DNA of 64,000 nt, taken from positions 58,468,001-58,532,000 of the forward strand of contig CM052816.1 of the NCBI GenBank assembly GCA_028534125.1, written 5' to 3'. The DNA comes from Lama glama (Eukaryota). Made by a program: the position numbers and the translations under genes. Below are positions 8,336 through 64,000 of this stretch, piece after piece. The number at the start of each line of letters is the position of its first letter. Position 1 is the stretch's first letter. Below the pieces are notes generated by a model. The model was not told where the DNA came from, ran no database searches, and saw only the letters and a list, made by a program, of their open reading frames with translations.

Positions 8336-9665
8336 CTGCTGAAATTTTAAAAGGAAAAATAAAAGGACAAGTGGATCTCCTTTTCGATATTCTAGTTTTA
8401 AAAACTAGTCTGGCAAAAGTGGATCGATGACTTGAACAGAGGCTACAATAAAATGTTTGTTTAGTAAATTAAAAAATGGAAATTCTAATGAAGACTGATG
8501 ACCCTTTTCAAACTTTAAATCCTTAAGACATTATATATAGCACATAATTTTATGCTCATGCTAGTTCCTTAAAAAAAAAAAAAAAACCCAGAGGGAAATA
8601 CCCCTAAGTTTCAAAACAAACCTTAATTAGCCTAATTTGAATTACTAGATAACAGGCTTTTTCTTCTGATAGCTTAAAAAAATTTTTTTTATTGACGTAT
8701 AGTTGATTTACAATATTATATTAGTTTTGGGTGTACAGCCCAGTGATTCAGTATTTTTAAAGGTTGAAAGCCATTAAATGAGAGTTGTTTCTTAAAATTA
8801 AGTTTATATTCCACATTGACACCCCCTAAACTGATCTGAATTATTGGCATTATACTTTAATTATCAACTTGGGATCAGTCAAACCAAACATACAAAATTT
8901 TAAATCTCTGAAATACTTGTATTGCAGTATTTGAAGATAATTCATATGGCTGCATTAATCAAACAAAATTCTGTTTGAGGCAGAAGTCACTTAACTTTTG
9001 TCAGATATAACTGTTTATTCACTATCAAAATAAAGTCTTCACTCAAAACAAGTACTCAGTCACTCCAATTACATTTTAGAGATACAGATTGGATATAAAT
9101 ATTTCAGTAATGGCCTCAAGGCAAATGAAGAAGTTATAAGTCAAGAATTAAAAGTAGTCAAATTTTTTCATGTTGTGATAATTTTACATAAAAGTGGAAA
9201 ATGCCTAAATCTACAGAATAACCTTTCCAAAAAGTATCCAATTTAAATTCTTATCTCAGCTCTTATATGTGATACATGTGCTATTTACATTTCACCCAAT
9301 TAATGTGAATGCACAAGGTCAGAATACATACCCTACATTTTTACAATTAACAAAGACCCACCAAAAAAAAAAGATAAACAAATGTCAACTATAAAAAAGC
9401 CATATCCTTAAGCTTAAATGTCTCAAAACTACAGGCTAATTTATTAATATCAATAATCATGGACTCTTATGTAGTTAACAGGATCTCTGTGAACTTTATT
9501 AACAGTAACTGGTATTTGAATCTCCACTGTTGGGAGAAATTTTGAAACAAATTCATGTAACAAACTTAGAAATCACCAAGCATCACTAAGCTATCAAAAT
9601 ACTACTCTAAACCCAGCACTAGTTGAGCCCAACAGGAGAAGTTAAACTAAAAAATAAAGGAATAA

Positions 9666-10499: not shown

Positions 10500-11250
10500 T
10501 CAGCGAGACCAACTGTAGTTTGCAACGTGTTCCTCGGCCTCAACTGTCAGGCTTAGTGCAAGCGAGGGAGTACTTCCACGAAAAAGTTCATTTGCTCAGC
10601 TTCCAGGTGACATGCCGGGAGAGGCGGGACAGATGAAAATGCTCCCCTCTGCAAACACTTACCTGCTCTTGGGAGTCTTTTCTTGGGGCTCCGCTTCCCC
10701 GAAACCCACTGGGGGCCCATCTGAGGACTCCGCTGGCTTCGGGGCAGAGGCCGCTGTAGGCTCTGGCGGCCTGGGAGCCTCCTGTTCACGCTGGGGATTG
10801 GAGGCGGTGGAGCCTCTGGCGCCAGCTCCAGGCCTGACATTCGGCTTCACGCTTAGGCGTGCCCTGCGGAACATGGCGGAGCCAGGGGGCCCGGGGAGGC
10901 GGCCCCACGGCCGCTTTCAGCCCCGAGCCCCGGCCGCTGCCTGGAGAGGGGTTTAGGAACTACGCCCTTTCCACAAAGCCCACACCACCAGCCCAGCCGG
11001 CAGCTACCGCAGTTTCACGCCCCCGCCACCACCACCTGCGTCGTCCCGCCGCCGCCTCTTCTTCATGACCCTGCTACAGTAATAGCTAAGCTTCTCGCTA
11101 TACCTTGCTCCCCCGCCGTCAGAGGGCGCCGGAACTGGTTGCGTCATCCTCCAGCGCCACGGAATGACGTAAGACGCACAGCGCCCGGAGCCATGGTAAC
11201 TGTAAGCCACGGAGCCTGGGTTACCTGGGAACCGGAAATTGAGATGCAAG
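10500..11250. promoter_or_regulatory. BDP1: BDP1 CpG island/promoter
   Basis: GC/CpG-rich. Motif matches read by eye: CTCF-like CCGTCAGAGGGCGC 11116-11129, CRE-like TTGCGTCA 11139-11146 and TGACGTAA 11165-11172, RFX X-box-like GTTACCTGGGAAC 11220-11232, ETS CCGGAAAT 11232-11239. Confidence 0.8.
10663..10874 (-). CDS. BDP1: BDP1 (TFIIIB B'' subunit) coding exon 1, 212 nt
   Basis: MFRRARLSVKPNVRPG... is the BDP1 N-terminus; GCCATG context; donor CAG|GTAAGT at 10663/10662; lies in a CpG island. Confidence 0.96.
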
Positions 11251-14600: not shown

Positions 14601-15159
14601 ACACCGTAAAAAACACCTCCCCGGGGGTGAGGTTTGTGGAGATGGAAGCCCTGGAAGGGGTCGTGTTCTGGAGGTAGTTTATAGCTGGTAGTTAATACTC
14701 AAAGTCCTGAGGCCTAAAGACGGGGAGCTCTAAGTCTCCTCCCTTGTTCTTTTGGCCCTCACAGGTAATGTTTTACGAGCATATGTATTTGCTCGCTTAA
14801 CAGTTGAATTATGATGGGCCAACTTGTGCAAGGTGTGATCTGCAATTTATCTATCTTTCTCTCTCCACCCACACCCCTCAAAAGGCAAAACTTGTTTTGG
14901 AATATTGGCCCATATAGACAGACAATTGGAATGCCTGTGTTAAAGGACCTGGTATTTACAGCCAGTGAACCCCTTGACTGGTATAATACTCTTAAGACCT
15001 TAAGTGTTTACCTTCAAGCTTCCTCCTTGTCATCAGATCAGGGAACACTACTCAGTGCAGCATTCTGCTAGCTTCTCTCTTAAAAAGCAAACTTCAGATG
15101 CATTTAAATGTGAGCCTTATAATGGAGTTATCAACTTGGGGGATGGGAAAATAGCATGA

Positions 15160-15285
<126 letters not shown>

Positions 15286-15822
15286 TAAGTGATACTAAAG
15301 AAATTCCCGAGTCACAGAAGTTTTCACTTTGGAAAATAGAAACCATTTTTAAATCCTTAGTAGAACTAGGCCTAACCTACAGAAAGGGGTAACAACTGAG
15401 TATCTGTTGTGTGCCTCGCATAGTAAAACTTTGTGACATAGTTGTTATCCCAACTCATGGATGAAGAATTTAAAGCCCTTAAGCTATAATTGGTGTTGCA
15501 GAAAATCTCATACCTCTCCACCATAACCATAAGCACTTCATTAACTTCCATGTGCAAAGAAAGCATTGTTAGGTGCAAAGGATAAATATTTTCAAAGCAG
15601 ATCTCCTACCCATTCTAGTCTGGATGACAGGCCACCAATTACATTGATAACTGTCTGAAAGAGACACAAAAAACATGTATAACTATTGACTTCTGAAGAT
15701 CCATTTGGTTGGAGGGAATATAGGTGCACAGCCTTGATACATGAGTATATGTGACAAATAATACAAACCTGCTACACAAATACTTTGAGACTGAAGCTCA
15801 AGTTAAAAAAAAAAAACATTCA

Positions 15823-15944: not shown

Positions 15945-17607
15945 TTCATGTTTCTAAAAAACAAAGCTAGCCAAATTTAATTTTATTCTAAAATCAAGTT
16001 TTGTTGTCACTATAAAAGTTGGTCAGGTAAATAACTGACTGCACGTGCTTCAGTATGGCTTCTCCGTGGCCCTCAAGCCTGGCTGCACATTAGAACCACC
16101 TGGGAAACCTTGACATCTGCTCAAGCCTGGGCCCTACACCCAGTCCAGATTTAATTGGTCTAGGGTAGGGGATTAAAAGGTGCACTAAGTAAATTTTATT
16201 GCACCTAAGTTAAACCTGACTTAAAAAGCTCCCCAGGTGATTCTGATGTTCAGTCAGAGTTTAATGAGGTTGAAGCCCTTATCACTTCACACTTTTTATG
16301 ACGTTTATTTTTAAAGTAATAAGCTTTGCTTTGAATTAGTTTACTTTCATTGGAGTAGAAGTGAACAGATCAGTAACCATGAAACAGTATTTTTTACTGG
16401 GAAACCTACCGTAGCTTGCCTCAGTAATCATTGTTTAATGAATACCTACTCCTTATAAAGCTCTGTGGTAGATACTATGTATATATTATCTCTATTCATC
16501 ACAATCCTAAAAAGTGGTATTAGCCCCAGTGCATACAATAAGAGACTAAAGGCTCTGAATTTGAGTAACATTGCTAAGGTCATACAGCAAGCACAGCAGA
16601 GTTTGGTTACAAACAGAAATTAACTATCACTGTTTTTTTCCGGGATACCTCATTTCTTGGTAGCTGTCGTCTTCTTCCTTTCTTCTCATTCCTTGTTTTT
16701 ACTGTCAGCTTTGCATAAATGTCTTACTGATACAGACAGAGCTGCTCATCCTGAATTAAAATCTAATACCAAATATACACAATAACAGCATAGGAAAGAG
16801 CCTCGACTTTGAAATTAGACAGACCTTGCTTTTTATGTGATGTGTGGCAAATTACTTAGCTCTAAGCCTTTAACTTTTTTTTTTCTAAACTCTTAAACAT
16901 AGGGACAATAACTCAAAATTATTGTGGGACTTAATCCAGAGCCAGTAAAGTGCCTGGCACATAGAGGGGGTTGAACACATAACCATTTAATTTATTTTTT
17001 AATATGGGCTCATGGACCGTCCGGCCCAGGTAGTCTGGTTTGTAGCTCACAGTAAGTGGAGGTTCAGCCAGAGACACAAAAGGTTAAGAAAATGCCCCAA
17101 AGATCCTGCTTTTCTTTGGTATAATCCATTTTTCATCACTAAATATTGGGGTTTTGGCTTGTAAGAAACTGAATTGCTTCACAACATCTATGTCCTAATC
17201 CTAGGTACCAGTTAGGAGATCTAGACTTCTTAAATGCCCCTTCTTCCAGCAAAAAATTTATAATGAATTAACTTTGTTGACAACCAAGAGTAATTACCAT
17301 TATTCCAGCATGTATCTACCTAGTGTCAGAACAGCCCTGATACATATTACTCTAATTTTGAAAGGACTTGGAGGTTATTTGCCCAAAGTCATAACAACAG
17401 TAGAGCTGGTATTCAAAATAAGATCCGACTTCAAAGCCATTTCATTCTTTGCCTTCCCATTCTATCTCCATCCATGAAAATGAAAAGACATAAAAGTTAT
17501 ATCTTTTCAGTTGTCTTCTGATATACTGAATGGGTTATTATAGAAATCAAGTGGCAACATAAAATCAGTTTTTCTGTAACAACTTACAGCCTTTTCCCCC
17601 CTTATAG

Positions 17608-17680
17608 GGATTCTGAGATCATGCAACAAAAGCAGAAGGCAGCCAATGAGAAGAAGTCTATGCAGACAAGCCAAAAATGA
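17608..17680 (+). CDS. SERF1A: SERF1 coding exon 3, 73 nt, completing a 62-aa protein
   Basis: (R)DSEIMQQKQKAANEKKSMQTSQK-stop; 7+109+73=189 nt. Confidence 0.95.
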
Positions 17681-22100: not shown

Positions 22101-23203
22101 TTTATTTATTTATTTTTAACATTTTTTATTGATTTATAATCATTTTACAATGTTGTGTCAAATTCCAGTGTTCAGCACAATTTTTCAGTCATTCATGGAC
22201 ATATACACACTCATTGTCACATTTTTTTCTCTGTGATTTATCATAACATTTTGTGTATATTTCCCTGTGCTATACAGTGTAATCTTGTTTATCTATTCTA
22301 CAATTTTGAANNNNNNNNNNNNNNNNNNNNNNNNNNNNNNNNNNNNNNNNNNNNNNNNNNNNNNNNNNNNNNNNNNNNNNNNNNNNNNNNNNNNNNNNNN
22401 NNNNNNNNNNNNNNNNNNNNNNNNNNNNNNNNNNNNNNNNNNNNNNNNNNNNNNNNNNNNNNNNNNNNNNNNNNNNNNNNNNNNNNNNNNNNNNNNNNNN
22501 NNNNNNNNNNNNNNNNNNNNNNNNNNNNNNNNNNNNNNNNNNNNNNNNNNNNNNNNNNNNNNNNNNNNNNNNNNNNNNNNNNNNNNNNNNNNNNNNNNNN
22601 NNNNNNNNNNNNNNNNNNNNNNNNNNNNNNNNNNNNNNNNNNNNNNNNNNNNNNNNNNNNNNNNNNNNNNNNNNNNNNNNNNNNNNNNNNNNNNNNNNNN
22701 NNNNNNNNNNNNNNNNNNNNNNNNNNNNNNNNNNNNNNNNNNNNNNNNNNNNNNNNNNNNNNNNNNNNNNNNNNNNNNNNNNNNNNNNNNNNNNNNNNNN
22801 NNNNNNNNNNGTCTTCTGCCCATTTTTGGATTGGGTTGTTTATTTTTTTCTTATTGAGTCGTATGAGCTGCTTATATATTTTGGAGATCAAGCCTTTGTC
22901 GGTTTCACTTGCAAAAATTTTCTCCCATTCCGTAGGTTTTCTTCTTGTTTTATTTCTGGTTTCCTTTGCTCTGCAGAAGCTTGTAAGTTTCATTAGGTCC
23001 CATTTGTTTCTTCTGGCTTTTATTTCTTCTAGGAGAAAATTTTTGAAATGTATGTCAGATAATGTTTTGCCTATGTTTTCCTCTAGGAGGTTTATTGTAT
23101 CTTGTCTTATGTTTAAGTCTTTAATCCATTTTGAGTTGATTTTTGTATATGGTGTAAGGGTGTGTTCTAGCTTCATTGTTTTACATGCTGCTGTCCAGTT
23201 TTC
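22101..23203 (-). mobile_element. Younger 5'-truncated LINE-1 spanning the assembly gap
   Basis: Open ORF2 C-terminal frame ([16 protein letters not shown]...[16 protein letters not shown]); TSD taattgggtttattta at 22085 and 23204. Confidence 0.9.
22311..22810. other. Assembly gap (500 N)
   Basis: Run of N. Confidence 1.
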
Positions 23204-30554: not shown

Positions 30555-30960
30555 AACCAAGGCGGCCGCTGCCTGTCAGCTCACGGAGCCCGCCCCGCGG
30601 CCGGCAGTCAGGCCGCCATGCTCTTCCGCTCCCAGACGCCCGGCGGCGGAAGTCGTCACTCGTGGAGGGACAGAATCCACGCTGCGCACCAGGCAGCAGG
30701 CTCGTCATGGCGATGGGTGGTGGCAGCGGCGGCGGCGGCGGCGTTCCCGAGCCGGAGGACTCGGTGCTGTTCCGGCGTGGCACAGGCCAGGTGAGTTCGC
30801 GGCCGGCGCGGTTTCCGACCACCGCACCCTCCCAGCCCCCGCGCTCCTTCCCCGGCCAGTTCGCTAACTGCGGGGCCGTGGTCCGCATGCTTCCGTATCT
30901 TTCCTTGCTTGGGAGCCTCAGCCGCGAGCTCCTTCCTCGTGCAGTTTGGGCTCCCCAATG
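30555..30960 (+). promoter_or_regulatory. SMN1: SMN CpG island/promoter
   Basis: CpG-rich; contains GGCGGCGGAAGTCGTCACTC (ETS site as recalled from the human SMN promoter/5'UTR) and an inverted CTTCCG ETS core. Confidence 0.85.
30707..30790 (+). CDS. SMN1: SMN exon 1 coding part, 84 nt
   Basis: MAMGGGSGGGGGVPEPEDSVLFRRGTGQ; CAG|GTGAGT donor. Confidence 0.97.
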
Positions 30961-42420: not shown

Positions 42421-42531
42421 ATAATTCCCCCACCGCCTCCCATATGTCCAGATTCTTTGGATGATGCTGATGCTTTGGGAAGTATGTTAATCTCTTGGTA
42501 TATGAGTGGCTATCATACTGGTTACTATATG
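42421..42531 (+). CDS. SMN1: SMN exon 6, 111 nt (YG box)
   Basis: [46 protein letters not shown] donor. Confidence 0.98.
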
Positions 42532-50230: not shown

Positions 50231-50278
50231 GGTTTCAGACAAAATCAAAAAGAAGGAAGGTGCTCACATTTCAATTAA
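50231..50278 (+). CDS. SMN1: SMN exon 7 coding part (exon 50231-50281, 51 nt); total CDS 882 nt = 293 aa
   Basis: GFRQNQKEGRCSHFN-stop; long pyrimidine tract + CAG acceptor; GGA|GTAAGT donor; C at +6 (50236). Confidence 0.97.
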   Translation, partial: GFRQNQKEGRCSHFN

Positions 50279-53200
50279 GGAGTAAGTTTGCCATCATTAT
50301 AAAAGTAAATCTTACTTTTGCATACATTTTATATTTGTGGAAAACATATTTAAAAATTGAAGTATTGAAAAGTAGAAAAGTTAATATAAAATAATATTAA
50401 AAACATTTTGATGCCGAATCTGTTTGATATGTTGATCTACATCCTTTCTAGAATTCTCATGATGTCAAAGTATCATCTCAGCAAGTACTTTTTGTTTGAT
50501 AGTGTGGAAAGGAAAACATACCTTTACAAAAAAAGAATAGATCCTTAGAATCAGAGATGAAACTTTGCATCACTGTAGTCAGACAGCCAGACTTGCTTTT
50601 TGATTTGTGATGCAGTAGGAAATACACTGTGTTACCTGTGAAGTGTTCCGTTCAAAGAAGTTGAACTGGAATGTAAACAAACCTTTAAGATCTACTTTCC
50701 AATTTACTGGAAATAACTGGGGTTAGAGCGGTAAATTAAATGACACTACAAAATGACTTCTAAATTTGCATGCAAAAGTATTTAGAAGTGAAATGTTATG
50801 GTGTCTCTAATGTATTTTTTTAATGATTTAGCAAAATGCATATATATGTGTGTGTGAAGCACATGGCTATAATTGAATCTAAGTGGTGTTCATATGGATG
50901 CTCATTGTACTTTTTTTCTATGTTCTGTGTGTATGAAAAGTATATAAGAAAAATGTTCAGCATTTTTAAACTAAATTAGTAAAAGCTAAGTGTCTATTGT
51001 ATTCTCTTTTCACATATTTTATTACACTTTTGGTTCATATTCATCTATATTTTGATGTTTCAGCATTTTGTGCTTGCGTGTTGCATGCATCCCCACTTAA
51101 TATCACATTTTAAAATTTTTCTTTGTTCTGTCAGATTGTTTTCATGTATGTTATACCACTTTTCCTTTAGTTCAATAGCTTTCGGCATTCTCAGTAACAT
51201 TAGTAAATACCTTTTTATATGTGGTACTTGATTCTGTTCTAGCCTTAGGGTAACGTTGTGTTGTGACTATTTGATAAATGGTTGTGGACATTATGATTCT
51301 TGGTATATGTTTCCATGTTGCTTTGAAAAGCAAATTTCGAAAAAGCATCTTTTTGATTTTCAAAATCAGTGCATTCTTGGGAGGGATATTTTTAAAATTA
51401 TATAAATCATCATATTTAAAAACATAATTACCTGTATTTCATTCTTTGCTTAAAGTCTTTTTTTTCTTTTTTTTTTCCTTTTTAAAAAAAAAATCTCCAT
51501 TACGGTATGATTCCTGTATAGTAAATTACATGTATTTCAGATGAACAGTTTGATGAGTTTTGATAGATGTATACACCAAAGAAATCACCACCACAATCAT
51601 GATAGCTAACATGATTAAAGTCATTTTTATTCAACTGAAGTTCTTCAGCTAGGTTATTTAGCTAAGTCTAAAAAGGTGAAAAGAAAAAGTAAGCAGGGTT
51701 GCTGTTCCAGGCAGAGAATGTATAAGCTGGAAACATTAGGGCAGTGTGTTTCAAGGCCTAAGGTAGCCAAATGTCATATCACTGTTTCTAATGCCACTCA
51801 GCCTTCTTATCCACCCCCATCCATGTAGGTTCCCTTCTTTGAATCTGTTCTCTGCTTATTTCTATTACATAGCTTTTCACAGTATATTCTCTTCATTCTT
51901 TATGTACCTGGCTTTCCTCTGTCGTTAGAGGCAAGGCACTGCATCTTGTTCATCATGTCCACAGTATCTGGCACAGTCTCTTGACCTCTAAGATAGGCTT
52001 AGAGCATAGACTGGAGGGAATGTCAGAGAAGAGAGAAAACGGTAAATAGAAGAGAGATTTCAGAGTTGTTTTCAGATCAAATCTTTCACCCATCATGAAA
52101 GGTTAGGCCTCAGTTGTATGTCTTGCTAGAAGACTTTTCTTCATAAAAAATATTACATTAGGTGAATGGTTTGAAAGTTGAGTTACTTGTAGTGGTGTTT
52201 GACATAGGGTAATTTTTAGACACTGTTTTCCTTAACTTAAATATTGAATAATGAAGCCTCTTCCCCCTTCAGTACAGACAAGTACTGCAAAATCAACACA
52301 TTAAATGTCTAGACTAACCTTAGTAATAAAGTCAAAACAGATCTTGTTTTCTGGCTTTCACTGTAGTAATTGTCCTTGTGGTTGTGAGGAATCCTAGATG
52401 GAAAGTTCCATCATCTGTACCTGCATTCAGAAGAGAGGCAAACAGAAGGTGAGGTGCCATATTTGAAGAGTGCCTTCACTAAGGGATCAGCCAGAGATGA
52501 CTTTATCTCAGTCATGTTGTAAGTTTAGCTTTCTGTATGGTTGCCATTAACAGAAATAAACTACAGAATTAATGGTTTAAGTTATGTGTTGTTTGAAGTT
52601 CTTGGTGAATGAAAAAACGGTGAATTCAATTCAGAAATCACATTCTAAAAGTTTAACCAGAGCAACTCCTGCTTCTCCGGAAATCATGTTTATATACAGT
52701 AGTCAGCAGAAGAGATTCAGTATTCAGTTATTTCACTAAATACTTGGTGCGTTGTGCCATTTTTATGTATGAAGTGTGGCCTTTCAAGAGGATTCATGAA
52801 CATTTTTTACACGGCCCTCGTTTTTTCCCCTGGTATTTTTTTGAGGTATAATTTCTGTATAAGTGAAGAGTTTGATCAGTTTTGAGAAGTTACATTGTTA
52901 CTACATCAAGATGTAGAACATTTCCCTTAATCCAGCAGATTTCTTTGTACCCCTTTCTAGTCATTCACCACACTTTGTACCCCTTTCTAGTCATTCACAT
53001 TACCTATCCTGGCAGTCACCATCCTTGATTTCTGTGAGCAAAGAGTAGTTTTACTTATTTTAGGACTCCATGTAATGGAATCCTAATGACACGAAAATTT
53101 TCTTCCCTTTATATAATAATAGCCATATTTTTTGAGTGATTACTGAGTGTCCTAGACATAGTTATTTCATTTAATCTTTATACCACTCAAGTTATTCTCA

Positions 53201-54271
53201 TTTTGCAGATGAGAAAGCAGGCTCACCGAGGTGAAATGACTTGCCTTGGACCATATAGCAAATGGTGGAACTCTATATGACTCCAGAACTCTCTCTCCAG
53301 CTCTCAGCCTCCCAGCAGCTGTTTCTTCCAGGCTCCAAGGAGTCTTGTGCTACACGTGCATAATTTAGGATTTGGGCAAGGACCTAAGTAGAAATCCTAC
53401 GCAGATTTCTGGGGCTCCTCGTCAAATCCCTCCTCTCTAGACCTTACCTCTTCAAATTCCAGCTGCCTTATCCCAGGGCCCAGAGTCCAGTGTCTGTTTC
53501 TTCCACCCACCCAGGAAGAACAGCACTCTCTACTCAGGCTCTGCCTTCCATACTGCAGTTTGGAAATTGTGTCCAGCCAAGAGGGTGTAATGCGAAGCTC
53601 ACCTTAAGTATCTGCCTTTTCCAAGGATCTTGGTCCTGTGCTGTCTGTTGTCCAGTGCCTGGAAACAGTTGTATCGTAAATTGTGCCCAGATTTATAACT
53701 TATCACAGGAAAGCAAGTATACTACCAGCTATTCCTCCTACTTTTAAACAAACATCTCATCATTTTCTTCTTGAATACTTGGTTGTTTGACACAATTCAT
53801 TGCATCACTTTTTCCATTTTGGTTTTTATTTGTTGGATGATTTCTGAAAGATTAATTAGTTGTGAAGATTAAAACATAGTGTGCTAAACAATGATGATAT
53901 ATTCTCCATCTCTCAAGTACATAAGATTAACATGTCATATTTGGAGTTGTTGATGTACATATTTCTACATGACAGTAATACATCTATTTTGGGCTGTTTT
54001 GTTAAACATAGTTGCATAGAGTTATTTTTGTGAATTGTTGATTAGTTTCATATATTGGCTCTCAGAATCTAAATAGATCATCAAACGTTGTCATATTGCT
54101 TCCCCAGAGAGTAAGTAGTTAATAATACCCTCGTTCTTTACATTTATCTAATTGTTAGAGTATCTGCTTGTTAAAGTTTATTTTAAAATTATTTCTCCAT
54201 TGTTATTCATGTTTATAAAATAAAAGCTCTAAAATAATTTGAATCCATTTTTGAACATCATTCAGTTTATT

Positions 54272-54440
54272 CTTTTTTAAATTAAATTCTTTTTAAAAAT
54301 ATTTTATTTATTTATTATTATTTTATTTTGGTATGGAGGGTAATTAGGTTTATTTGTTTTTAAAGGTGGTACTAGGGATTGAACCTAGGACCTCATGCAT
54401 GCTAAGCATGCACTTTACCACTGAGCTATACCCTCCCCCT
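54272..54440 (-). mobile_element. Vic-1-like SINE
   Basis: Reverse-complement head and tail; TSD gtttattctttt. Confidence 0.85.
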
Positions 54441-55679
54441 CGGTTTATTCTTTTAATTCTTTTTTGTGGATTTTTTTTAAATGACAGTGCTGCTTGTTAC
54501 ATATAGCAATCTGGTGGGAAAATACATTTAAATGAAAAAAGTAAGATGCAGAGCTGTGTGTATTATGCTACCTGCCATTTGTGTAAATACACATTTACAT
54601 ACGTGTGTATGTGCACTGATTCTCCTTTCAGGGTGATACTCATGTTACCTGTGAAGAAGGACTATAAGACAAAGGGTTGTGAGGGAGACTTCACAGTATA
54701 CCCTGTAGTATTTTTTCTGTTTGTGCTCTGTACATTTACTAACAATAACAATATGTAATTAAGATAAACCTGGTAAGACGTATCTATCATCTTACTCCTT
54801 TAAACTTTAAAAAATTTTCATTTCTGTAGGTTATTCAGTGTTCTTTAATAGGTAAGTACTTTTCCCTCATTATTTAAATGTGTGCCATACTTAATTAAGT
54901 GAGCTCTTGTGGATGGACGTTTAGGTTGCTTCCAATTGTTTACTATTTAATACCGTAGTTAGCGTTCTTTTACATAATTCTTTTTGTAGATTTATGAATA
55001 CATCTTTAGGATTATCTAATTAGATTGAATTAGAATCTAGAATTAGATTCTAGAATTAGAACTCCTGGACTGAAGAAGATACACGTTTTTAACTTTAATA
55101 GATTTTTGCCAAATTGCTCTCAGTAGAGATTACATTAATTTGTACTTCCACTGACGTCGTTTAAGAGTTCCTGTTTCCCAGTCTAGCCAATAATTTCTCA
55201 GACCTTTGAATCTTTGTCACTCTAATAGTTGAAAATGGTTATCATTGTATTTATAATTTTTTATTTATCTTATTGTGAAGTTCAGCACCTCTTCATGTGT
55301 TTAAGGGCTATGTATGTTTTCTGAAAACTTTATGAACATCACTTTTTCCCACCTGTCAAGTGGGCTGTATGTTTTTCCCTTTTGATTTGTAAGAGTTCTT
55401 TGTGATGAGAGTTGCAAATACTTTTTCCTTGGTTTATCATTTCTTTTGACCTTGCTTATGGTAATAGTGGTTGTTGTCATGTTGACAGAAATATTTGCTT
55501 TTCATTTAGGCATACTGCTTAATTTTCATATCCTCAGAATCATCCCCCTTTTTTTTGCTTTTCTTCTAATTCTTCTACTGTTTTAATTTTTTTCAGTATC
55601 TATATGATAATTTTCTCATTATCATTTTAGATATTTGTGTTTACTCGCTCTTAAACTTTTGCTTATAAAATTTTATCTA

Positions 55680-56297
55680 CAGTTTATCTTCATTATTCAC
55701 AGATTCTGTATTTGCAGATTTGCCAGCTTATTAAAATTTATCTATAATCCCTAAATCAGTATTTGTGGAGCTTTCACCATCATTCATGGACACATGCAGA
55801 ATGTTGAAAAAATTTGAGTCACCTGATAGGCATTCCCAGATTGAGCAATGCTCTGTTTTCTTGTTTCAGCTCTCATACTATAAACAATAAACAAATGTCC
55901 TTTTCGCAATCTATTTAGTGTTACAGTTTTCATAATTTTGTGCCTTTTGATTTCACCCATTAAGATAATGCTCAAGCATTGTGCTGAAGTGATATCTAGT
56001 ATTCCCAAGTATAAGAAGGCTGTGATGTGCCTAACAGAGAGAATATACGTGTTAGATATGTTCACGCATAAGTTGCAGTGCTGTTGGCTATGAGTTCAGT
56101 GTTAATCAATCAACAATATATATGAAATAATGTGTCTTTGAACAGAAATGCACATAAAACAAGGTTATATATCAATCAGTTGATAATGTGACCAGAGGCT
56201 TGCAGGAACCTAGCCTTGTATTTCTTCTAAGAGCAGTGGCTCAGTGTTTGTGGCAACTTTTAAAAACATAACTGCCATGAATAATGAGAATTGATTC
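55680..56297. mobile_element. TcMar-Tigger element (MER82-like)
   Basis: TA-CAGTTTATCTTCATTATTCACAG start and ATGAATAATGAGAATTGA end form imperfect TIRs. Confidence 0.7.
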
Positions 56298-57519
56298 TAT
56301 GTATTTCTCTTCAAGGTATTTTACAAACAGTTTACAAAATAAAGAGATAGTGAAAATAACTTTGTTAGCAATTGTAGTGAGAATTAAAATACTGCAAACC
56401 CAAATTTTTATTCTGTATTTTTCCAGTTTTGAATGTTTATATATATATCTCCAAATTGGATAACATTCTTTGAATGCAGCTAACTGTTCACTGGCTATTA
56501 TGTACAGACTTGGAATACATTTATCTTCAAAATATTGATTCTAAATTTCAAATGCATCGCTAGTATGTTCTAGCTTATCATTACTTTGATTCTTTATGCA
56601 CTTGCTTTATCAAAACATAATACTTTTGAAAGCTTCTGTTTATTGCATAAACAAATGATAGCTATCCTCTTTGTTGCCTAAAAGCATAACATTGCGTTTT
56701 TAATAGTACCAGTTAGGATGATCTTATTGTTTCTGCATTATCTGTTACCTTCCAGTTACTTTCTATACACATCTGTCATCCGTATCTGTTCACACACTGT
56801 TATCAAGTAAATTTTGGTGCACAGGCATTAAAAAAGATGAAAGGACACTGTCACATGTCCTTTTTGCAAAATGGAATGGTTCAGGCTTTTATCACAAAAT
56901 ATTATTATATTATACTATGAAATCCTTTCTGTTGAAGGACTAACTGAATATTACCGTATTTCCTTTGTCCTCAGAAATATATCAGATCTTGAGTTTGAGA
57001 AAATTCACCTAAGTAGAATATGTCATCTGAAGATTCATCATCTGAGACTTTGCTTATGTGAACAGTCTCACTATTATTGGTCTAGAATAAGGATCAAAAA
57101 TTTTTTCTTAAAAGGTTAGATTGTAAATATTTTAGGCCATAGTTTTGTAGCCTCTGGTCTAAATGTTACCATCTGTTCCCTTTACATTCATCTAATTGCT
57201 TTAATAATTATGGAATGACTTTCTCTGTAGATTTTGTTCTCTTTGCCTTTATGGACAGAAAATGAAAAAATCTGAATTGTGTTCAAGGAAAACTTAAAAA
57301 AAAAAAGGAAAAAAGACTACAAGGATGTTGTTTCCAGTCTTCCATTAAAATTTCTTGAAAGATAATCCAATACTTTGGGCAACAGAATAAGAAGACTGTA
57401 ATAGTGATACATTAGTTCACTACTGATGATTTATTCCATCATCCTTTTAGGTGATTCTGTACTTCCATGTTCTTATTTTATTTTAGTTTTTTTTTTTTAA
57501 CATAGCTAGAGGTCATTGG

Positions 57520-58005
57520 TGTGAGTATATTATCTGTTGCTACATAACAGACTGCCTTAAAATTTAGCACCTTAAAACAGCAAATATTTATTATCTCTAG
57601 TTTCTGTGGGTCAGGAATCCAGGAGCAGCTGAGCTGGGTTGTTCTCATAAGGCTTCGAAGCAAGCTGCCAGCCTCAAGTGATGGTCATCTCAGGGTTCTA
57701 CTGGGGCTGGAGGGTCTGCTTCCAAGCTCACTAACGTGGTTGTTGTCAAGAGGCTCTCTTGCTACCTTGGCCTTTCCAGAAGTAGCCTGAGAGTTCTATG
57801 ACATGACAGTTGGCTTCTCCAGAGTGTGTGATCCAGTAGAAAGTGAGCAGCACCACACACACACTTTCATAATTTAGTCTCTGAGTCACACACCATCACC
57901 TCCACCTTTTTCTATTCTTTTGAAGTAAGTCCAGGCCACATCCAACTGGAGGGGTCTACACAAGGGCAGGAATCATTGGAGACCATCTTGAAGGCTGGCT
58001 ACCAC
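57520..58005. mobile_element. MaLR LTR (MLT1-type)
   Basis: TTGCTACATAACAG...TTAAAACAGCAAATATTTATTATCTC...GGTCAGGAATCCAGGAGCAG...GGCTGGCTACCACA. Confidence 0.78.
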
Positions 58006-58871
58006 AATGAGTTCATCCTAGGATGAAGAATAACTAAATATTTCAATATAAGGGATAATAAAATCACTAAGATTCTGCATTTTGGATTTATAAAAGAGTC
58101 CAGTAGAGTTAGTATAATTGTTAAGATAGGAGTTTTGGTTTTTTTAAACAGTAAATTTTCTTTTTGTTCATCAGACCTCTAAGACTGAGTCATGAATCCT
58201 TACAAATAGTTAGAACTGCTGAAATAAGAAACTCAAACTGAAATTGAGTCCATTGGACTGAGATAATATAGTAGGAATTAATTTCCACTTTCTGCTTTCC
58301 TTATAAGCTTTTTAAATTCCTTCTTATCTGTTGTGCATTAAAATAGATACTTCAGGACCATAAATTTTCCTCTCAACAGTACTTTGGTTGTATTCTGTAG
58401 AATTCTTATTTTCTAGATATTCCAAATTTTTAAATTGTTTTCAACTCTAGATATGTCTAATAAATGTTTAATTTCCATGTAGTTAGGTTTAATTTCTAGT
58501 TTTATTGTAGTTATAGGATGTTGTTTGTATTGTTCTAATTATTTTTTTTACATATGATTTTGATCATTGTTTTTAATGTTTTAAATTGTATTGGGACAGA
58601 TCAAATACCAGTGCTCCTGAAGAATTTTTTTAACTGTTCTTGCTCATTTACTTCTCCAAACGAATTTTGCAATTAATTTGTCTAATTGTTTAACTGTCCC
58701 ATAAAGATTGAAACTGGTATTATATTTAGTCTTTATATTAGCATATTTTTATTCTAGTTTTATTTACCATGATGAGTGTATTGCTTTCCGTTTTCTCTCT
58801 TTATGACTTTATAAGAAAATAGGTGTTTAAACGTCATCATTGTATTTAGACTTTTTATCTTTCAAATTCAG

Positions 58872-59225
58872 GTGCAGCTGTCTCCCAAGGAGAATGTATT
58901 TTGATGTGCTCTGGTCGATGTGAACAAAAGTTTCATCATTTTCTTCATGAATACTTGGATAGGTGCATGTCATCTACATTTCCCCTTGTTGGATGTGTCT
59001 CATGCCTAAATAACCAGTTAGGTATTTGGAGAGAATAATTCATTTGAATAATTGAACAATGGAAATGTGAGTGATTGAAAGAAACTCAAGGTCACATATA
59101 GTGCAGAAAATTTATTCTGTCAAAATCACAATTAAGCACATTTGTATATTGTAACTTTCTTAGTAAATATGTTAAGCTTTTTATTAATACTTTAAAAATA
59201 AATGATCAATCTTTTTTTTTTTTTA
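58872..59225 (+). other. SMN1: Candidate SMN terminal (3'UTR) exon, mouse Smn exon 8-like
   Basis: Pyrimidine tract + CAG|GTGCAGCTG acceptor; AATAAA at 59197-59202 with downstream T/GT-rich element; both ends resemble the mouse Smn 3'UTR as recalled. Confidence 0.7.
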
Positions 59226-60059
59226 ACCATGACCATCTGATTTTTTGGGGTGGGGGTGCAGAACATACATGGTTAAGTTGGAGTCTATCTAATGATGTAG
59301 AAAAGCACTCCTCAAGCTTATTTGGTAAAGGATAGTATTGAAAGATGCAAGCACTTGTAAAACAATGTTGCTGATAATTCAAAATTAGGGAACAAAGCCT
59401 TGCTGAAGCTGAATGTCATAGTCATGGGACTGGACTGGGCCAATCAGGAACCAAGGCTGTGTCCTGTTGCTTGGAAGTTACACTGTCAGTCTCCTCCTTC
59501 ACCTTTTCTTATCTGTCTACCTCTTTTCTAGCTTTCTCCACATCCTTGTCATGCACACTACCTTGCAGTTCCATCTGCCATCCCTTTGACTATATGTCTC
59601 TCAGTTCAAATTCTATGGAGAGGTAAAAGTCACACTGTTTAGTCTAAGGATTAATGTCCATGTACCAGAGATTCTCCCTAGTCCATTTAGCCATAGGAGA
59701 ATATGTTAATATGTTAAGTGCTTTCTTTCAGAGGTTTTTGCTTGGACAAACTAAATGTGCCTAACATATTAGTAGCTGCCCAGTATTTGTTGAATAAGTG
59801 AATGAATATTCAAGTGCCTGGTAAGTAAGTTTTGCAGAATGGGATGTTCTATGGCTAAAGCTTTTTTGTACAGGGTAAGTGGAATTTTATCTTTTTTCAT
59901 GACAATCAGCTAATATTTTATACATCTAGTGTATATTAATTGCCTAAGTATGTGCTGGGATAAATTTAGTTATGAACGTAGCTTACTTGCCTTGTAAGAT
60001 TTTTGAATGTTACCCCCCTTAATACCTAATACAGTTGAAGAGTAGTTGTAGGTTCCTGA

Positions 60060-61330
60060 AAGTCATTCATTTCAGCAAATATTTAACTTTGTGTTGGACA
60101 CTCTTCTAGGTGCTTGGGAGACAGTAATGAACATAACAGAGGAAAGTTCTTGCTTAAAATGGTTAAGAACTAACTAGTAAACAAGTATAATTTATAAGGT
60201 GGCAGCTAGTGATACATGTCAGAGAGAAAAGTGAAAACAGGAAAGGAGGTTAGGCAGAGTGGGACTGGAAGCAGGGATGCTTTTTAAAAAATGGTCAGGG
60301 AACTCCTCATTGAGGTGACATTTGAGCAGAGATTCAAAGGAAATGAGAGACATTCACATAAGTAGAGGGAACCTCCCAGGGAAAGGCATGAAGGGAATAG
60401 CAAATCAGCTTGGCTTGGAGTGGAAGTGAGCAAGGAGGAAAGATTGAAGGAAAGGAGGTAAGAGAGGTAGCCAAGGGTCAGGTCATATGTAGGCCATTGC
60501 AAGGTCTTCACCATTTACTTGGAGCTAGGAATCCATTGGAAGATTTTGAACCAAAGGTGTAGCATGATCAGATATATAGAAAGAGCCTTCTGACAGCTAT
60601 GTTGAAACACCATAAGTTTCAAGAGAGAAAGCAGGCTGACTTACTTAGGACCAGTGAGCTTGGATCTGAGTGTATTTTGCAGCTGGAGCTCAGGATTTGC
60701 CAATAGAAAGAAAGTAATCCAGACTGACTCCCAAGGTTTTTGGCCTGAGCAAGTGAAAAAATAATGAGATGGAGAAGTCTGCCTCAAGGGTACTTCTGTG
60801 GAAAGGAAGGATAGGAGTTGGGTTTGGACATGTGTAATCTGAAATGCCCATTAATAGGACTTGGATATGAACAAAAAGTTCAAAGGAGAGATCTGGGATA
60901 AAGATGAAAATTTAGAAGTTAGCATAGACCTGGAATTTAAAGCCATTCAAATAGGATGAGACAGCCCAGGAAGTGCATTTAAATAGGGAAGTTAGAGGAG
61001 AACTCTGGGATATTCCCCATGTTCAGAGATGAGGTATGAGGAGAAGCAGTAAAAGAGACAGCTCTCAATGAGTAAGGAATCCCAAAGGGATGCCCTGGAA
61101 GCCAAATGAAGAAAGCGTTTTGAGGAGTAATGGGCAGTATCAAAGGGGCCGATAGGTCAGATGCTGCTAATGAGTCACGTAGGATGAGGACTGAGAAGTA
61201 TTCACTGAATTTAGCAAGGTGGAGATCGTTGGTGACCCTCATAAGAGCTGTTTTGGTGAAACAGGAGGTGGGAGAGAATGTAACAGTTGAAGACAACACA
61301 TAAAAACAACTCTTGCAAGGAACTTTGTAT
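60060..61330. mobile_element. LINE-2 remnant
   Basis: Starts CATTCATTTCAGCAAATATTT; the antisense ORF has L2 RT-like TKTALMRVTNDLHLAK...SVLIL. Confidence 0.8.
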
Positions 61331-63028
61331 TTCTGAATTTTTGTTACATTTGGGTTATTAGTAAAAATCCTATTAGATATAACTTTGAAGTTTTGGTGAA
61401 GCTTGTTTAAGTTGTGTGTGTAGTATACTGTATGTGTGTAAATTTTATATAAGAGTTCTTACTGTGGGTCATGGTTTAAAAAAGTTTTGAAAAATACGCA
61501 ATTAGAACAAGAAAATGCAGGGAATGTTAAGAAAAGATGGAGGATATAGGAGACATTACTTGTGTGAGCACTGGTGAAGGATTTAAGGAGCTGGAGAGGA
61601 TTAGAATACGTATAAGAAAGGGAGAAGTTTAGAAACATAAGGGTAAGTAAGTGTCCGGGCAATGAGGGATGACCTAGGAGTTCTGTGGAAATTGATGTAT
61701 ACTGGAATAAAGGGCATGGTGACCTTATGATCCAAAAATACTTTTTTGTGGAAATAACTCATTCTCTGTGAAGGGCCAGGGCACATTAGCTTCATAGGCC
61801 TCTAAAAATGTAAAGACATTCTTAACTCACAGGCCGTACAGGCTGTAGCTACACTTTGCTGCCCCCTGCTTTATACTGGAAGCCCTTAGCAGATGCTCTG
61901 GACAATTAATTTGCCCAGAGTCGTGTTAGTGTTTTTAAAGTATCATTTTTAATAACATATGCAAGTGATAAAGAATTCAGGTAATTATATGCAGGTAAAA
62001 AAATGTAAACCTCCTGCCCCTGTCCGCTAGCTATCTTGATCCTCTCTGTGGAGTCTGTCATCACCATTTTCTCATGTATTAAAGAATTTTTCTATGAAGG
62101 TATGAACATGCATCTAATAGTATGTTAATCTTAAGAAATTTAACTAGGTTCTTTTTTGTTTAGGTCTGAACAATTTAATAAGTAATACTTGTACCATTTA
62201 TCAGGTTACTGCCTGTCCTGCAGTAATGCATCTGGACCCTGTAAATGCCTCTCCCCTGTCAGCAGGCACAGTGTAAAGCTTTCTCAGTAGAGGTTACTGG
62301 TGAGACACTGGATGGGAAAGAGACTTCTTTTCCTGAGTCCAGTGTGCCTCTCTGGCACATGGTTTCCGCAGCCTTGTGCAGTGCCTGGCTTCAGCAGTAC
62401 CCAGTGGCCAGCAGCACCCCCACATGAATGGTTTCCTGTGACACCCCCAAAAAACTTTCTAAGCAAAGTGTCCCAAGCTTACACTGTCTTGGGCTGTAAC
62501 TCGCCACCCTCTCTGTTGTCCATGGCTGTACCTTCTCCACCAAGGTCTGGATCTCAGTCCTGGGTTTCTTTTTTTGGTGCTCTGTCTCAGCCTAGGGTGA
62601 AGAGCCAGTAGGCTGTTCCCTATACCTGCTTCGAGTTCTCCATTTCATACTACAGTCTCCTGTCACAGTTAATAACTTTTTATAGTAAACTTCCCCCAAA
62701 TTACTATGTGGTGTCTCTCCTGATCAGACTAATACAATGCTTAAAACCTTTCTGATTACAAAAGAATTAGATATAGAATCAGACCAGCAAGAAGGTAACT
62801 CATCTCACCTTCTAATAATCTCATCCTCCAGAGCAATTATTAATGTTGTAATAATGCTAAACTAGTTTTATACTTTATTATTTAAATAAAACAGGTACTT
62901 GTAAAACAAAGCAGTACAAAAAGTAAAAAGAATGCCTTCCAGTCCCACTGTTTAACAACTTAGACTAGTTATCCACTGTTACCATTTTGTATATTCTTCC
63001 AGAAATTCTTAATGCATCTAGAAACATG

Positions 63029-63062
63029 AATATATATATATATATATATGTATATGTATATT
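63029..63062. repeat. (TA)n microsatellite
   Basis: Seen directly. Confidence 0.9.
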
Positions 63063-64000
63063 AAACAAATAGAATCATAACATATACACTGTTCCTATGT
63101 TTCATTGTAAAAATAAAAAGGCAAAATAAGTTTTCCAACTTATACTAGCATCATGAATTTGCAGTGGCCTCCTAGCCATTCAGAAAACTCTGCTACTTGG
63201 TAGGAGTGAAATTCTGGACACAAAGATGTAAACATCCACATCAAATGTAATACCTTGAATCCTATGACGTCACTGACAGTATGTTCTCCCTGAGCAGAGT
63301 GGAGTCATAAGAAAATTCTAACACCATTTTAAATGCATATGTTGAACTCTCAAACATGTTATCTAAAAAAGCATTGATGCTCAATATTCTTGAAAACAGA
63401 TTTAGCTCATTTCCAATAAAGCTCAATTCTAAACTGCATTTTTTGCTTAATCAATAAACATTGAATCAAAAGCTTCCAGAATACAAGCATTTTCCCTAAA
63501 TCTTATTTCTTCACATTGGCAGTAGATAAAGGGAAGGTACAAATAAACCCTACTATACCAAAGTTAATTAAATATGCAAAACAGACCCTACAAGATATAC
63601 AAGATTAATACCTGTTGTTTCACCTTTGTGTAAAACTGATTTAGTTCTTAAGTTAGCCATTTCGTAATAACTTGAATATTCTTTTGTATTAAGACTTTAA
63701 GGTAGATTGGTGCACTTCTTCCCAGCCCCATCCTGTGGCTTTGTGTTCCTGTTTATCGTAGCGAGCCTGATGTTTTCCCAGGGTTATGAAGAGTTAGATG
63801 TGTAAACTTGATTGAAGGACTCATCTTTAATTGGGGAGGATCACTTAGGAACTTCAGAGTTACTGGCAATATCTATTTCTAAACTCAGTAATGGGTAAGC
63901 AGGATGTTTGTTTTTTTTTTATTACATGCCTTAACATTATATTCTTTTGTGTGTAATATTTAATAGTTTTTGGATAATTAGGCTTTTAGAATTATTGATG

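Follow-up and report, generated by a model that had tools for sequence, protein, structure and literature searches.

The llama SMN gene probably ends at a distal last exon and carries the counterpart of human exon 8 as a presumably unused intronic relic

Introduction

RACE in pig showed that SMN exon 7 is followed after 8.9 kb by an exon of 26 bp and, another 3 kb downstream, by the last exon (Doktor et al., 2014; PMC4043917). That paper describes pig exon 9 as a homolog of mouse exon 8 that does not resemble human exon 8, presents the small exon as unseen in other species, suggests that a long intron 7 favors exon 7 inclusion, and marks pseudoexons inside introns in the legend to Figure 1A (PMC4043917). 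For the mouse last exon, poor homology has been noted and a cryptic donor reported at nt 192 (PMC6451121), and junction probes give GTTCAGC as the start of exon 8 (PMC3012126). In human SMN, intron 7 is 444 nt long (PMC4043917; PMC5854547), the exon 8 acceptor is printed as tctcatttgcagGA (PMC5854547), and exon 8 contains the 3′ end of an L1MC5a element (Pinto et al., 2022; PMC9219815). More generally, old LINEs can give rise to exons and poly(A) sites that are specific to one lineage (Attig et al., 2018; PMC6108849), and SMN is not mentioned in the main text of that study. Our search, mostly of literature outside subscription, found no paper that joins L1MC5a and a last-exon switch as a primate exonization or that treats camelid SMN; the accessible text of PMC5694776, PMC6954450, and PMC2781471 added nothing on the last-exon question.

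Results

A complete SMN gene in the window

The window, a 64,000-nt stretch of Lama glama DNA, contains a complete SMN gene on the plus strand, with the ATG at 30707 as judged by reading and translation. Exon 6, which carries the YG box (42421–42531, plus strand), was identified by its translation and GT donor and served as the query for the SMN protein search. Exon 7 (50231–50281, plus strand; 51 nt), also identified by translation, reads GFRQNQKEGRCSHFN before the stop codon TAA at 50276–50278, and the C-terminal end of Camelus SMN proteins is identical. The exon translations as a set are almost identical to those of Camelus SMN, the differences being the glycine length in exon 1, GSG/GLG, and FSG/FGG. 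The exon 7 donor is a consensus GTAAGT, with 50282 as the first base of intron 7. Because the stop codon sits in exon 7, the choice of 3′ end alters only the UTR. The proximal ISS-N1 motif at 50292–50297 is CATCAT, as in pig, where the human gene has cagcat, and this silencer may be weak in the llama gene too.

Several other features were seen in the window. A gene start on the minus strand at 10876 reads MFRRARLSVKPNVRPG and presumably belongs to BDP1, and exon-like segments on the plus strand at 15150–15330 and 17600–17680 resemble SERF1. A 500-N assembly gap (22311–22810) lies beside an open frame on the minus strand that we assume to be L1 ORF2-like, and a short tRNA-type SINE on the minus strand (54310–54440) resembles the camelid SINE.

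The counterpart of human exon 8 lacks a splice acceptor

The original prediction held that a counterpart of human exon 8 is present in intron 7 but non-functional, with TG at 50708–50709 in place of an acceptor, at a distance of 428 nt from the exon 7 donor, and with AAGAAA at 50946–50951. Direct reading confirmed both motifs as well as the distance, counted from intron base 50282, and the absence of an AG together with an intact distal last exon downstream (see below) supports the view that this segment is non-functional as a spliced exon. From its motifs, acceptor likeness, and a primer match, we delimit it as an intronic relic at 50692–50985 (plus strand), orthologous to human exon 8. Its designation as putatively L1MC5a-derived follows from that orthology and from the L1 content of the human exon (PMC9219815); a self-search of the relic within the window gave no long match.

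The position of the would-be acceptor agrees with that in human (428 nt versus 444 nt). Compared by eye with the human oligonucleotide −18+7, 13 of 18 intronic bases and the first five exon bases match, and at the acceptor itself (CTG, 50707–50709) a T replaces the invariant A of the human site. A published human exon 8 primer aligned at 50726–50749 with 18 of 22 bases, a score reached by 1 of 1000 shuffles in a 700-nt target around the expected place; over the whole 13.7 kb the best match was still 50726–50749, although it was not significant at that scale (77 of 200 shuffles). By eye and by the local primer test, the likeness to human exon 8 thus takes in the acceptor and the first 35 nt. 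Beyond this, Cebus and marmoset exon 8 tails, compared as protein or back-translated, shared only a non-significant 13–17-nt core with the relic; in the back-translated 219-nt marmoset tail only nt 23–35 matched, at 50737–50749, again without significance. An apparent Cebus match further into the relic did not survive alignment. The likeness therefore appears to drop past ~50750, and from acceptor position to hexamer the relic measures 236 nt; both lend indirect support to the absence of a few hundred nt of human UTR that had been proposed near 50755.

The 3′ end of the relic carries only variant hexamers (AAGAAA at 50946, ACTAAA at 50970, and AGTAAA at 50978). No AATAAA or ATTAAA was found near that end, the nearest ATTAAA motifs lying at 50735 and 51614 and the first AATAAA at 52325; we take human exon 8 to have AATAAA where the relic reads AAGAAA. 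With CTG where an acceptor needs AG, and with variant poly(A) hexamers only, the relic would be spliced out with the intron.

A probable distal last exon shared with other mammals

The original prediction named no alternative last exon. A probable true last exon of ~340 nt, the homolog of mouse exon 8 and pig exon 9, lies at 58872–59215 on the plus strand, the 3′ end at ~59215 being an estimate. This candidate was chosen by reading before the comparison with pig, with the mouse transcript as a guide. It has an intact CAG acceptor with 12 of 16 pyrimidines and an AATAAA at 59197–59202 followed by a T-rich stretch. Its homology to the last exon of other mammals is seen both in mouse probe sequence and in the isoform tails described below: the window reads GTGCAGC at 58872 where mouse has GTTCAGC, and the lone GTGAGT within the exon is at nt 196, compared with nt 192 for the mouse cryptic donor.

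Five published primers were placed over 50282–64000 and scored against shuffles. The best place for the upstream primer of pig exon 9 was at 58758, 88 nt before 58872, with 0 of 1000 shuffles doing as well in a 570-nt target set beside the candidate and 33 of 200 over 13.7 kb, a non-significant result at the larger scale. Neither the pig exon 9 downstream primer (102 of 1000 shuffles locally) nor pig primer ivs7.586s (561 of 1000 locally) was significant over 13.7 kb or locally, and ivs7.586s was set aside as support for an AAGAAA shared between pig and llama.

Gene models in which exon 7 is skipped or frame-shifted read into the next exon, and we sorted the tails after exon 6 in 391 SMN-cluster proteins (the best 120 of 129 matches, supplemented by 30 clusters with up to 15 listed members apiece). 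These comprised 269 normal exon 7 ends, 22 intron 6 read-throughs, three proteins ending at exon 6, 26 that were not parsed, and 71 others. Sorted by eye, the 71 unusual tails, which are annotated gene models and in part submitter predictions rather than experiments, fell into 16 of distal type, 19 of human-exon-8 type, and 36 that were not assigned; four tails were aligned without a match. All 16 distal-type tails are non-primate, from ten named species of three orders (Carnivora, Artiodactyla, and Rodentia): Lycaon, Meles, Ovis, Capra ibex, Moschus, Bos, Mesoplodon, Castor, Myodes, and Apodemus. All 19 human-exon-8-type tails are primate (human, chimpanzee, mandrill, colobines, gelada, Cebus, Sapajus, marmoset, and aye-aye), and no named non-primate tail among the 391 was recognized as belonging to this type, a 5-residue Mirounga tail not being placeable. 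The camelid proteins in the sample (P0193, P0296, P0299, P0303, and P0052) all end in exon 7.

Nine of the 16 distal tails were back-translated and aligned to both strands of 50282–64000, and all nine best matches start within 58851–58872. Eight of the nine beat all 60 shuffles; for the Apodemus tail, 6 of 60 shuffles did as well, and tighter gap settings lowered this to 0 of 50 and 1 of 50. In an earlier protein-level test, two of five distal tails beat all shuffles and the best match of the Castor tail fell elsewhere. Searching proteins with the distal exon's read-through frame as the query returned one candidate and no real match, a metagenome scan with a distal-exon pattern returned no matches, and a metagenome scan for beaver SMN gave 46 candidates, none of them confirmed. 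Nineteen sequencing runs in eight studies were listed as containing 58860–59230, 14 of a related organism at shares of 0.37–0.43, one of them recorded as RNA, and five at 1.00; we give these runs no weight as evidence.

Isoform tails also point to alternative upstream acceptors of the distal exon at 58848–58865 (plus strand). The homolog of the AG at 58848–58849 is used in a sheep isoform, whereas the acceptor used in Lycaon, Castor, Ovis, and Moschus models (the 58866 site) reads AA instead of AG here, at 58864–58865. A tandem acceptor cluster spans 58848–58877, and models of other species begin at sites matching 58850, 58866, or 58872. The extra residues of sheep isoform X1 had been considered as a mini-exon; they align to 58851 onward and reflect the upstream acceptor.

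Three further observations concern the tails and the distal exon. In P0040, a Meles meles SMN-like protein, exon 6 is joined directly to the distal exon, and the contig differs from that of the Meles SMN gene; this protein may come from a retrocopy of an exon-7-skipped mRNA. Exon-7-skipped models of New World monkeys (P0067, P0151, P0180–P0182, and P0191) have tails of 27–73 residues, whereas those of catarrhines consist of the four residues EMLA. Intron 7 (53747–53782) and the distal exon (58923–58958) share a direct repeat of 36 nt with 32 identical positions; it was the best non-self match of 246 tiles (0 of 500 shuffles) and may be an old duplication or a shared element. A more extended duplication of the distal exon at 53.5–54.2 kb did not exceed control blocks, and the 36 nt stand alone.

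A candidate mini-exon in intron 7

A probable untranslated mini-exon of 22 nt lies at 54830–54851 (plus strand), with an intact TAG acceptor and GTAAGT donor, and was picked by eye before comparison with the pig structure. Pig primer ivs7.8677s, from position 8677 of the pig intron and thus shortly before the pig exon at 8.9 kb, maps to 54644, 186 nt before the candidate, and no shuffle of 200 over 50282–64000 scored as well, which makes this the sole significant match among the five primers at that scale. Both the position and the splice sites are thus those expected of a homolog of the pig 26-bp exon 8. In a beaked-whale model, P0219 (XP_059948988.1), a 26-nt segment separates exon 6 from the distal exon; the best match of this segment is 54830–54852 with a 4-nt gap, at a score within that of shuffles (50 of 60) and at a place that moves under stricter gaps. 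The splice sites and the position of the pig primer make it likely that 54830–54851 is homologous to the pig exon, and we put its use in camelids at somewhat better than even. Because exon 7 is spliced straight to the distal exon in one sheep model, the mini-exon would not be constitutive across artiodactyls.

Alternative readings of the relic

The reading we prefer, and consider very probable from the sequence, is that camelid SMN leaves the relic unused and ends ~8 kb further on at the distal exon, the human exon being the derived state. Exon 7 would be joined to the last exon at 58872, with or without the 22-nt mini-exon at 54830 in between; the putative L1MC5a 3′ fragment, ~430 nt into intron 7, would be removed along with the intron; and the mRNA would be cleaved after the AATAAA at 59197. 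The last junction would then lie 3 or 25 nt past the stop, below the 50-nt limit for decay. A competing account would have the relic end some transcripts without splicing, with exon 7 running on into intron 7 for its first 700 nt and cleavage at a weak hexamer at ~50950–50985, giving full-length SMN with another 3′ UTR. The stop codon in exon 7 would permit this, the three variant hexamers are clustered with TGTA upstream and a downstream T fraction of 0.39–0.56, and a poly(A) site within intron 7 is used in human (PMC5854547). Such hexamers are, however, frequent throughout this AT-rich intron, the exon 7 donor is consensus, an exon with a canonical AATAAA lies downstream, and 3′ RACE in pig, in the accessible account, reports only the distal end (PMC4043917), all of which make unspliced ends distinctly unlikely. 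We regard it as very improbable that the TG reflects a mistake in the assembly or a rare allele, or that a nearby AG (50614, 50617, 50688, or 50830) is used, so that the relic is spliced as in human. The tract before the TG is still 12 of 16 pyrimidines, and AGs with 8–11 of 16 pyrimidines lie within 150 nt, but the hexamer is non-canonical too, the named non-primate tails among the 391 proteins include none recognized as human-exon-8 type, and a human-type exon 8 is described as unused in pig and mouse (PMC4043917).

It is also conceivable, if doubtful, that the direction of change was reversed, the AG, the AATAAA, or both being native to the L1, kept in primates, and decayed in camelids, or that both last exons were in use in an ancestor, with each lineage retaining one of them. 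As is generally known, a poly(A) signal comes with the L1 3′ end itself, and an aye-aye model (P0185) has a proximal-type tail; that tail is only five residues long, however, and may be a projection of the human model. Against this history, the distal exon is common to rodents, which are nearer primate relatives, and to three laurasiatherian groups, which makes a single switch in primates the simplest history. We accordingly favor a history in which the distal exon would be ancestral for rodents, primates, and laurasiatherians and primates would have switched to the L1 relic as last exon. Reversing the direction leaves the behavior of the camelid gene unchanged. Human exon 9 had been considered as the ancestral last exon and was dropped, being Alu-derived (PMC6451121).

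Discussion

The finding is real and largely explained: it is a new species instance with two small additions, the spread of the mini-exon and the age of the L1. Pig and mouse are already known to have a distant, non-human last exon, and the layout here is therefore the ordinary, published non-primate one and no oddity of this genome (PMC4043917). The first addition is that the 26-nt exon described only from pig probably also occurs in a whale gene model and in the llama window. The second is that the L1 relic probably predates the human exon.

For the Lama glama genome this is mainly an annotation result. Distal versus L1-derived last exons would explain differences between primates and model animals in SMN 3′ UTRs and in the tails of exon-7-skipped products, and the comparison is a warning that the sequence setting of human intron 7 and exon 8 is absent from camelid, pig, and rodent SMN. 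The mis-splicing of SMN2 would be due in part to the primate switch to a nearby L1-derived exon, if that switch increased the competition facing exon 7. A fuller scenario, unlikely as a whole, is that human exon 8 was born in early primates from an old intronic L1MC5a, with intron 7 going from ~9–12 kb to 444 nt, the ancestral last exon and an artiodactyl-wide mini-exon position being displaced, the competing acceptor leading to SMN2 exon 7 skipping, and the ancestral exon surviving in humans as the rarely used exon 12. Human exon 12 is the one intergenic exon that PMC6451121 does not call repeat-derived, and if it is the ancestral last exon, its forced use might favor exon 7 inclusion.

Among known systems, pig Smn1 matches the predicted llama layout in its long intron 7, small untranslated exon, distal last exon, and proximal ISS catcat (PMC4043917). 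It differs in the size of the small exon (26 nt versus 22 nt) and in spacing (8.9 + 3 kb versus 4.5 + 4.0 kb), and its structure comes from RACE, whereas we infer the camelid structure from sequence. The distal exon resembles mouse Smn exon 8 in its start motif (PMC3012126) and in having a cryptic donor at a similar offset (PMC6451121); unlike the candidate camelid layout, mouse exon 7 joins exon 8 directly, with no mini-exon in the junction probes (PMC3012126). The relic resembles exon 8 of human SMN1 and SMN2 in its orthologous position and 5′ sequence (PMC9219815), but it has no AG, carries a variant hexamer, and is apparently much shorter. In PMC9219815 the L1 is interpreted as an insertion into an exon 8 that was already there, whereas a putative L1MC5a copy in the camelid intron points to the L1 having been present first. 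As in the cases of PMC6108849, an old L1 near an exon would have become a processed exon in one lineage only; unlike those cases, the LINE exon here would have replaced the constitutive last exon of an essential gene.
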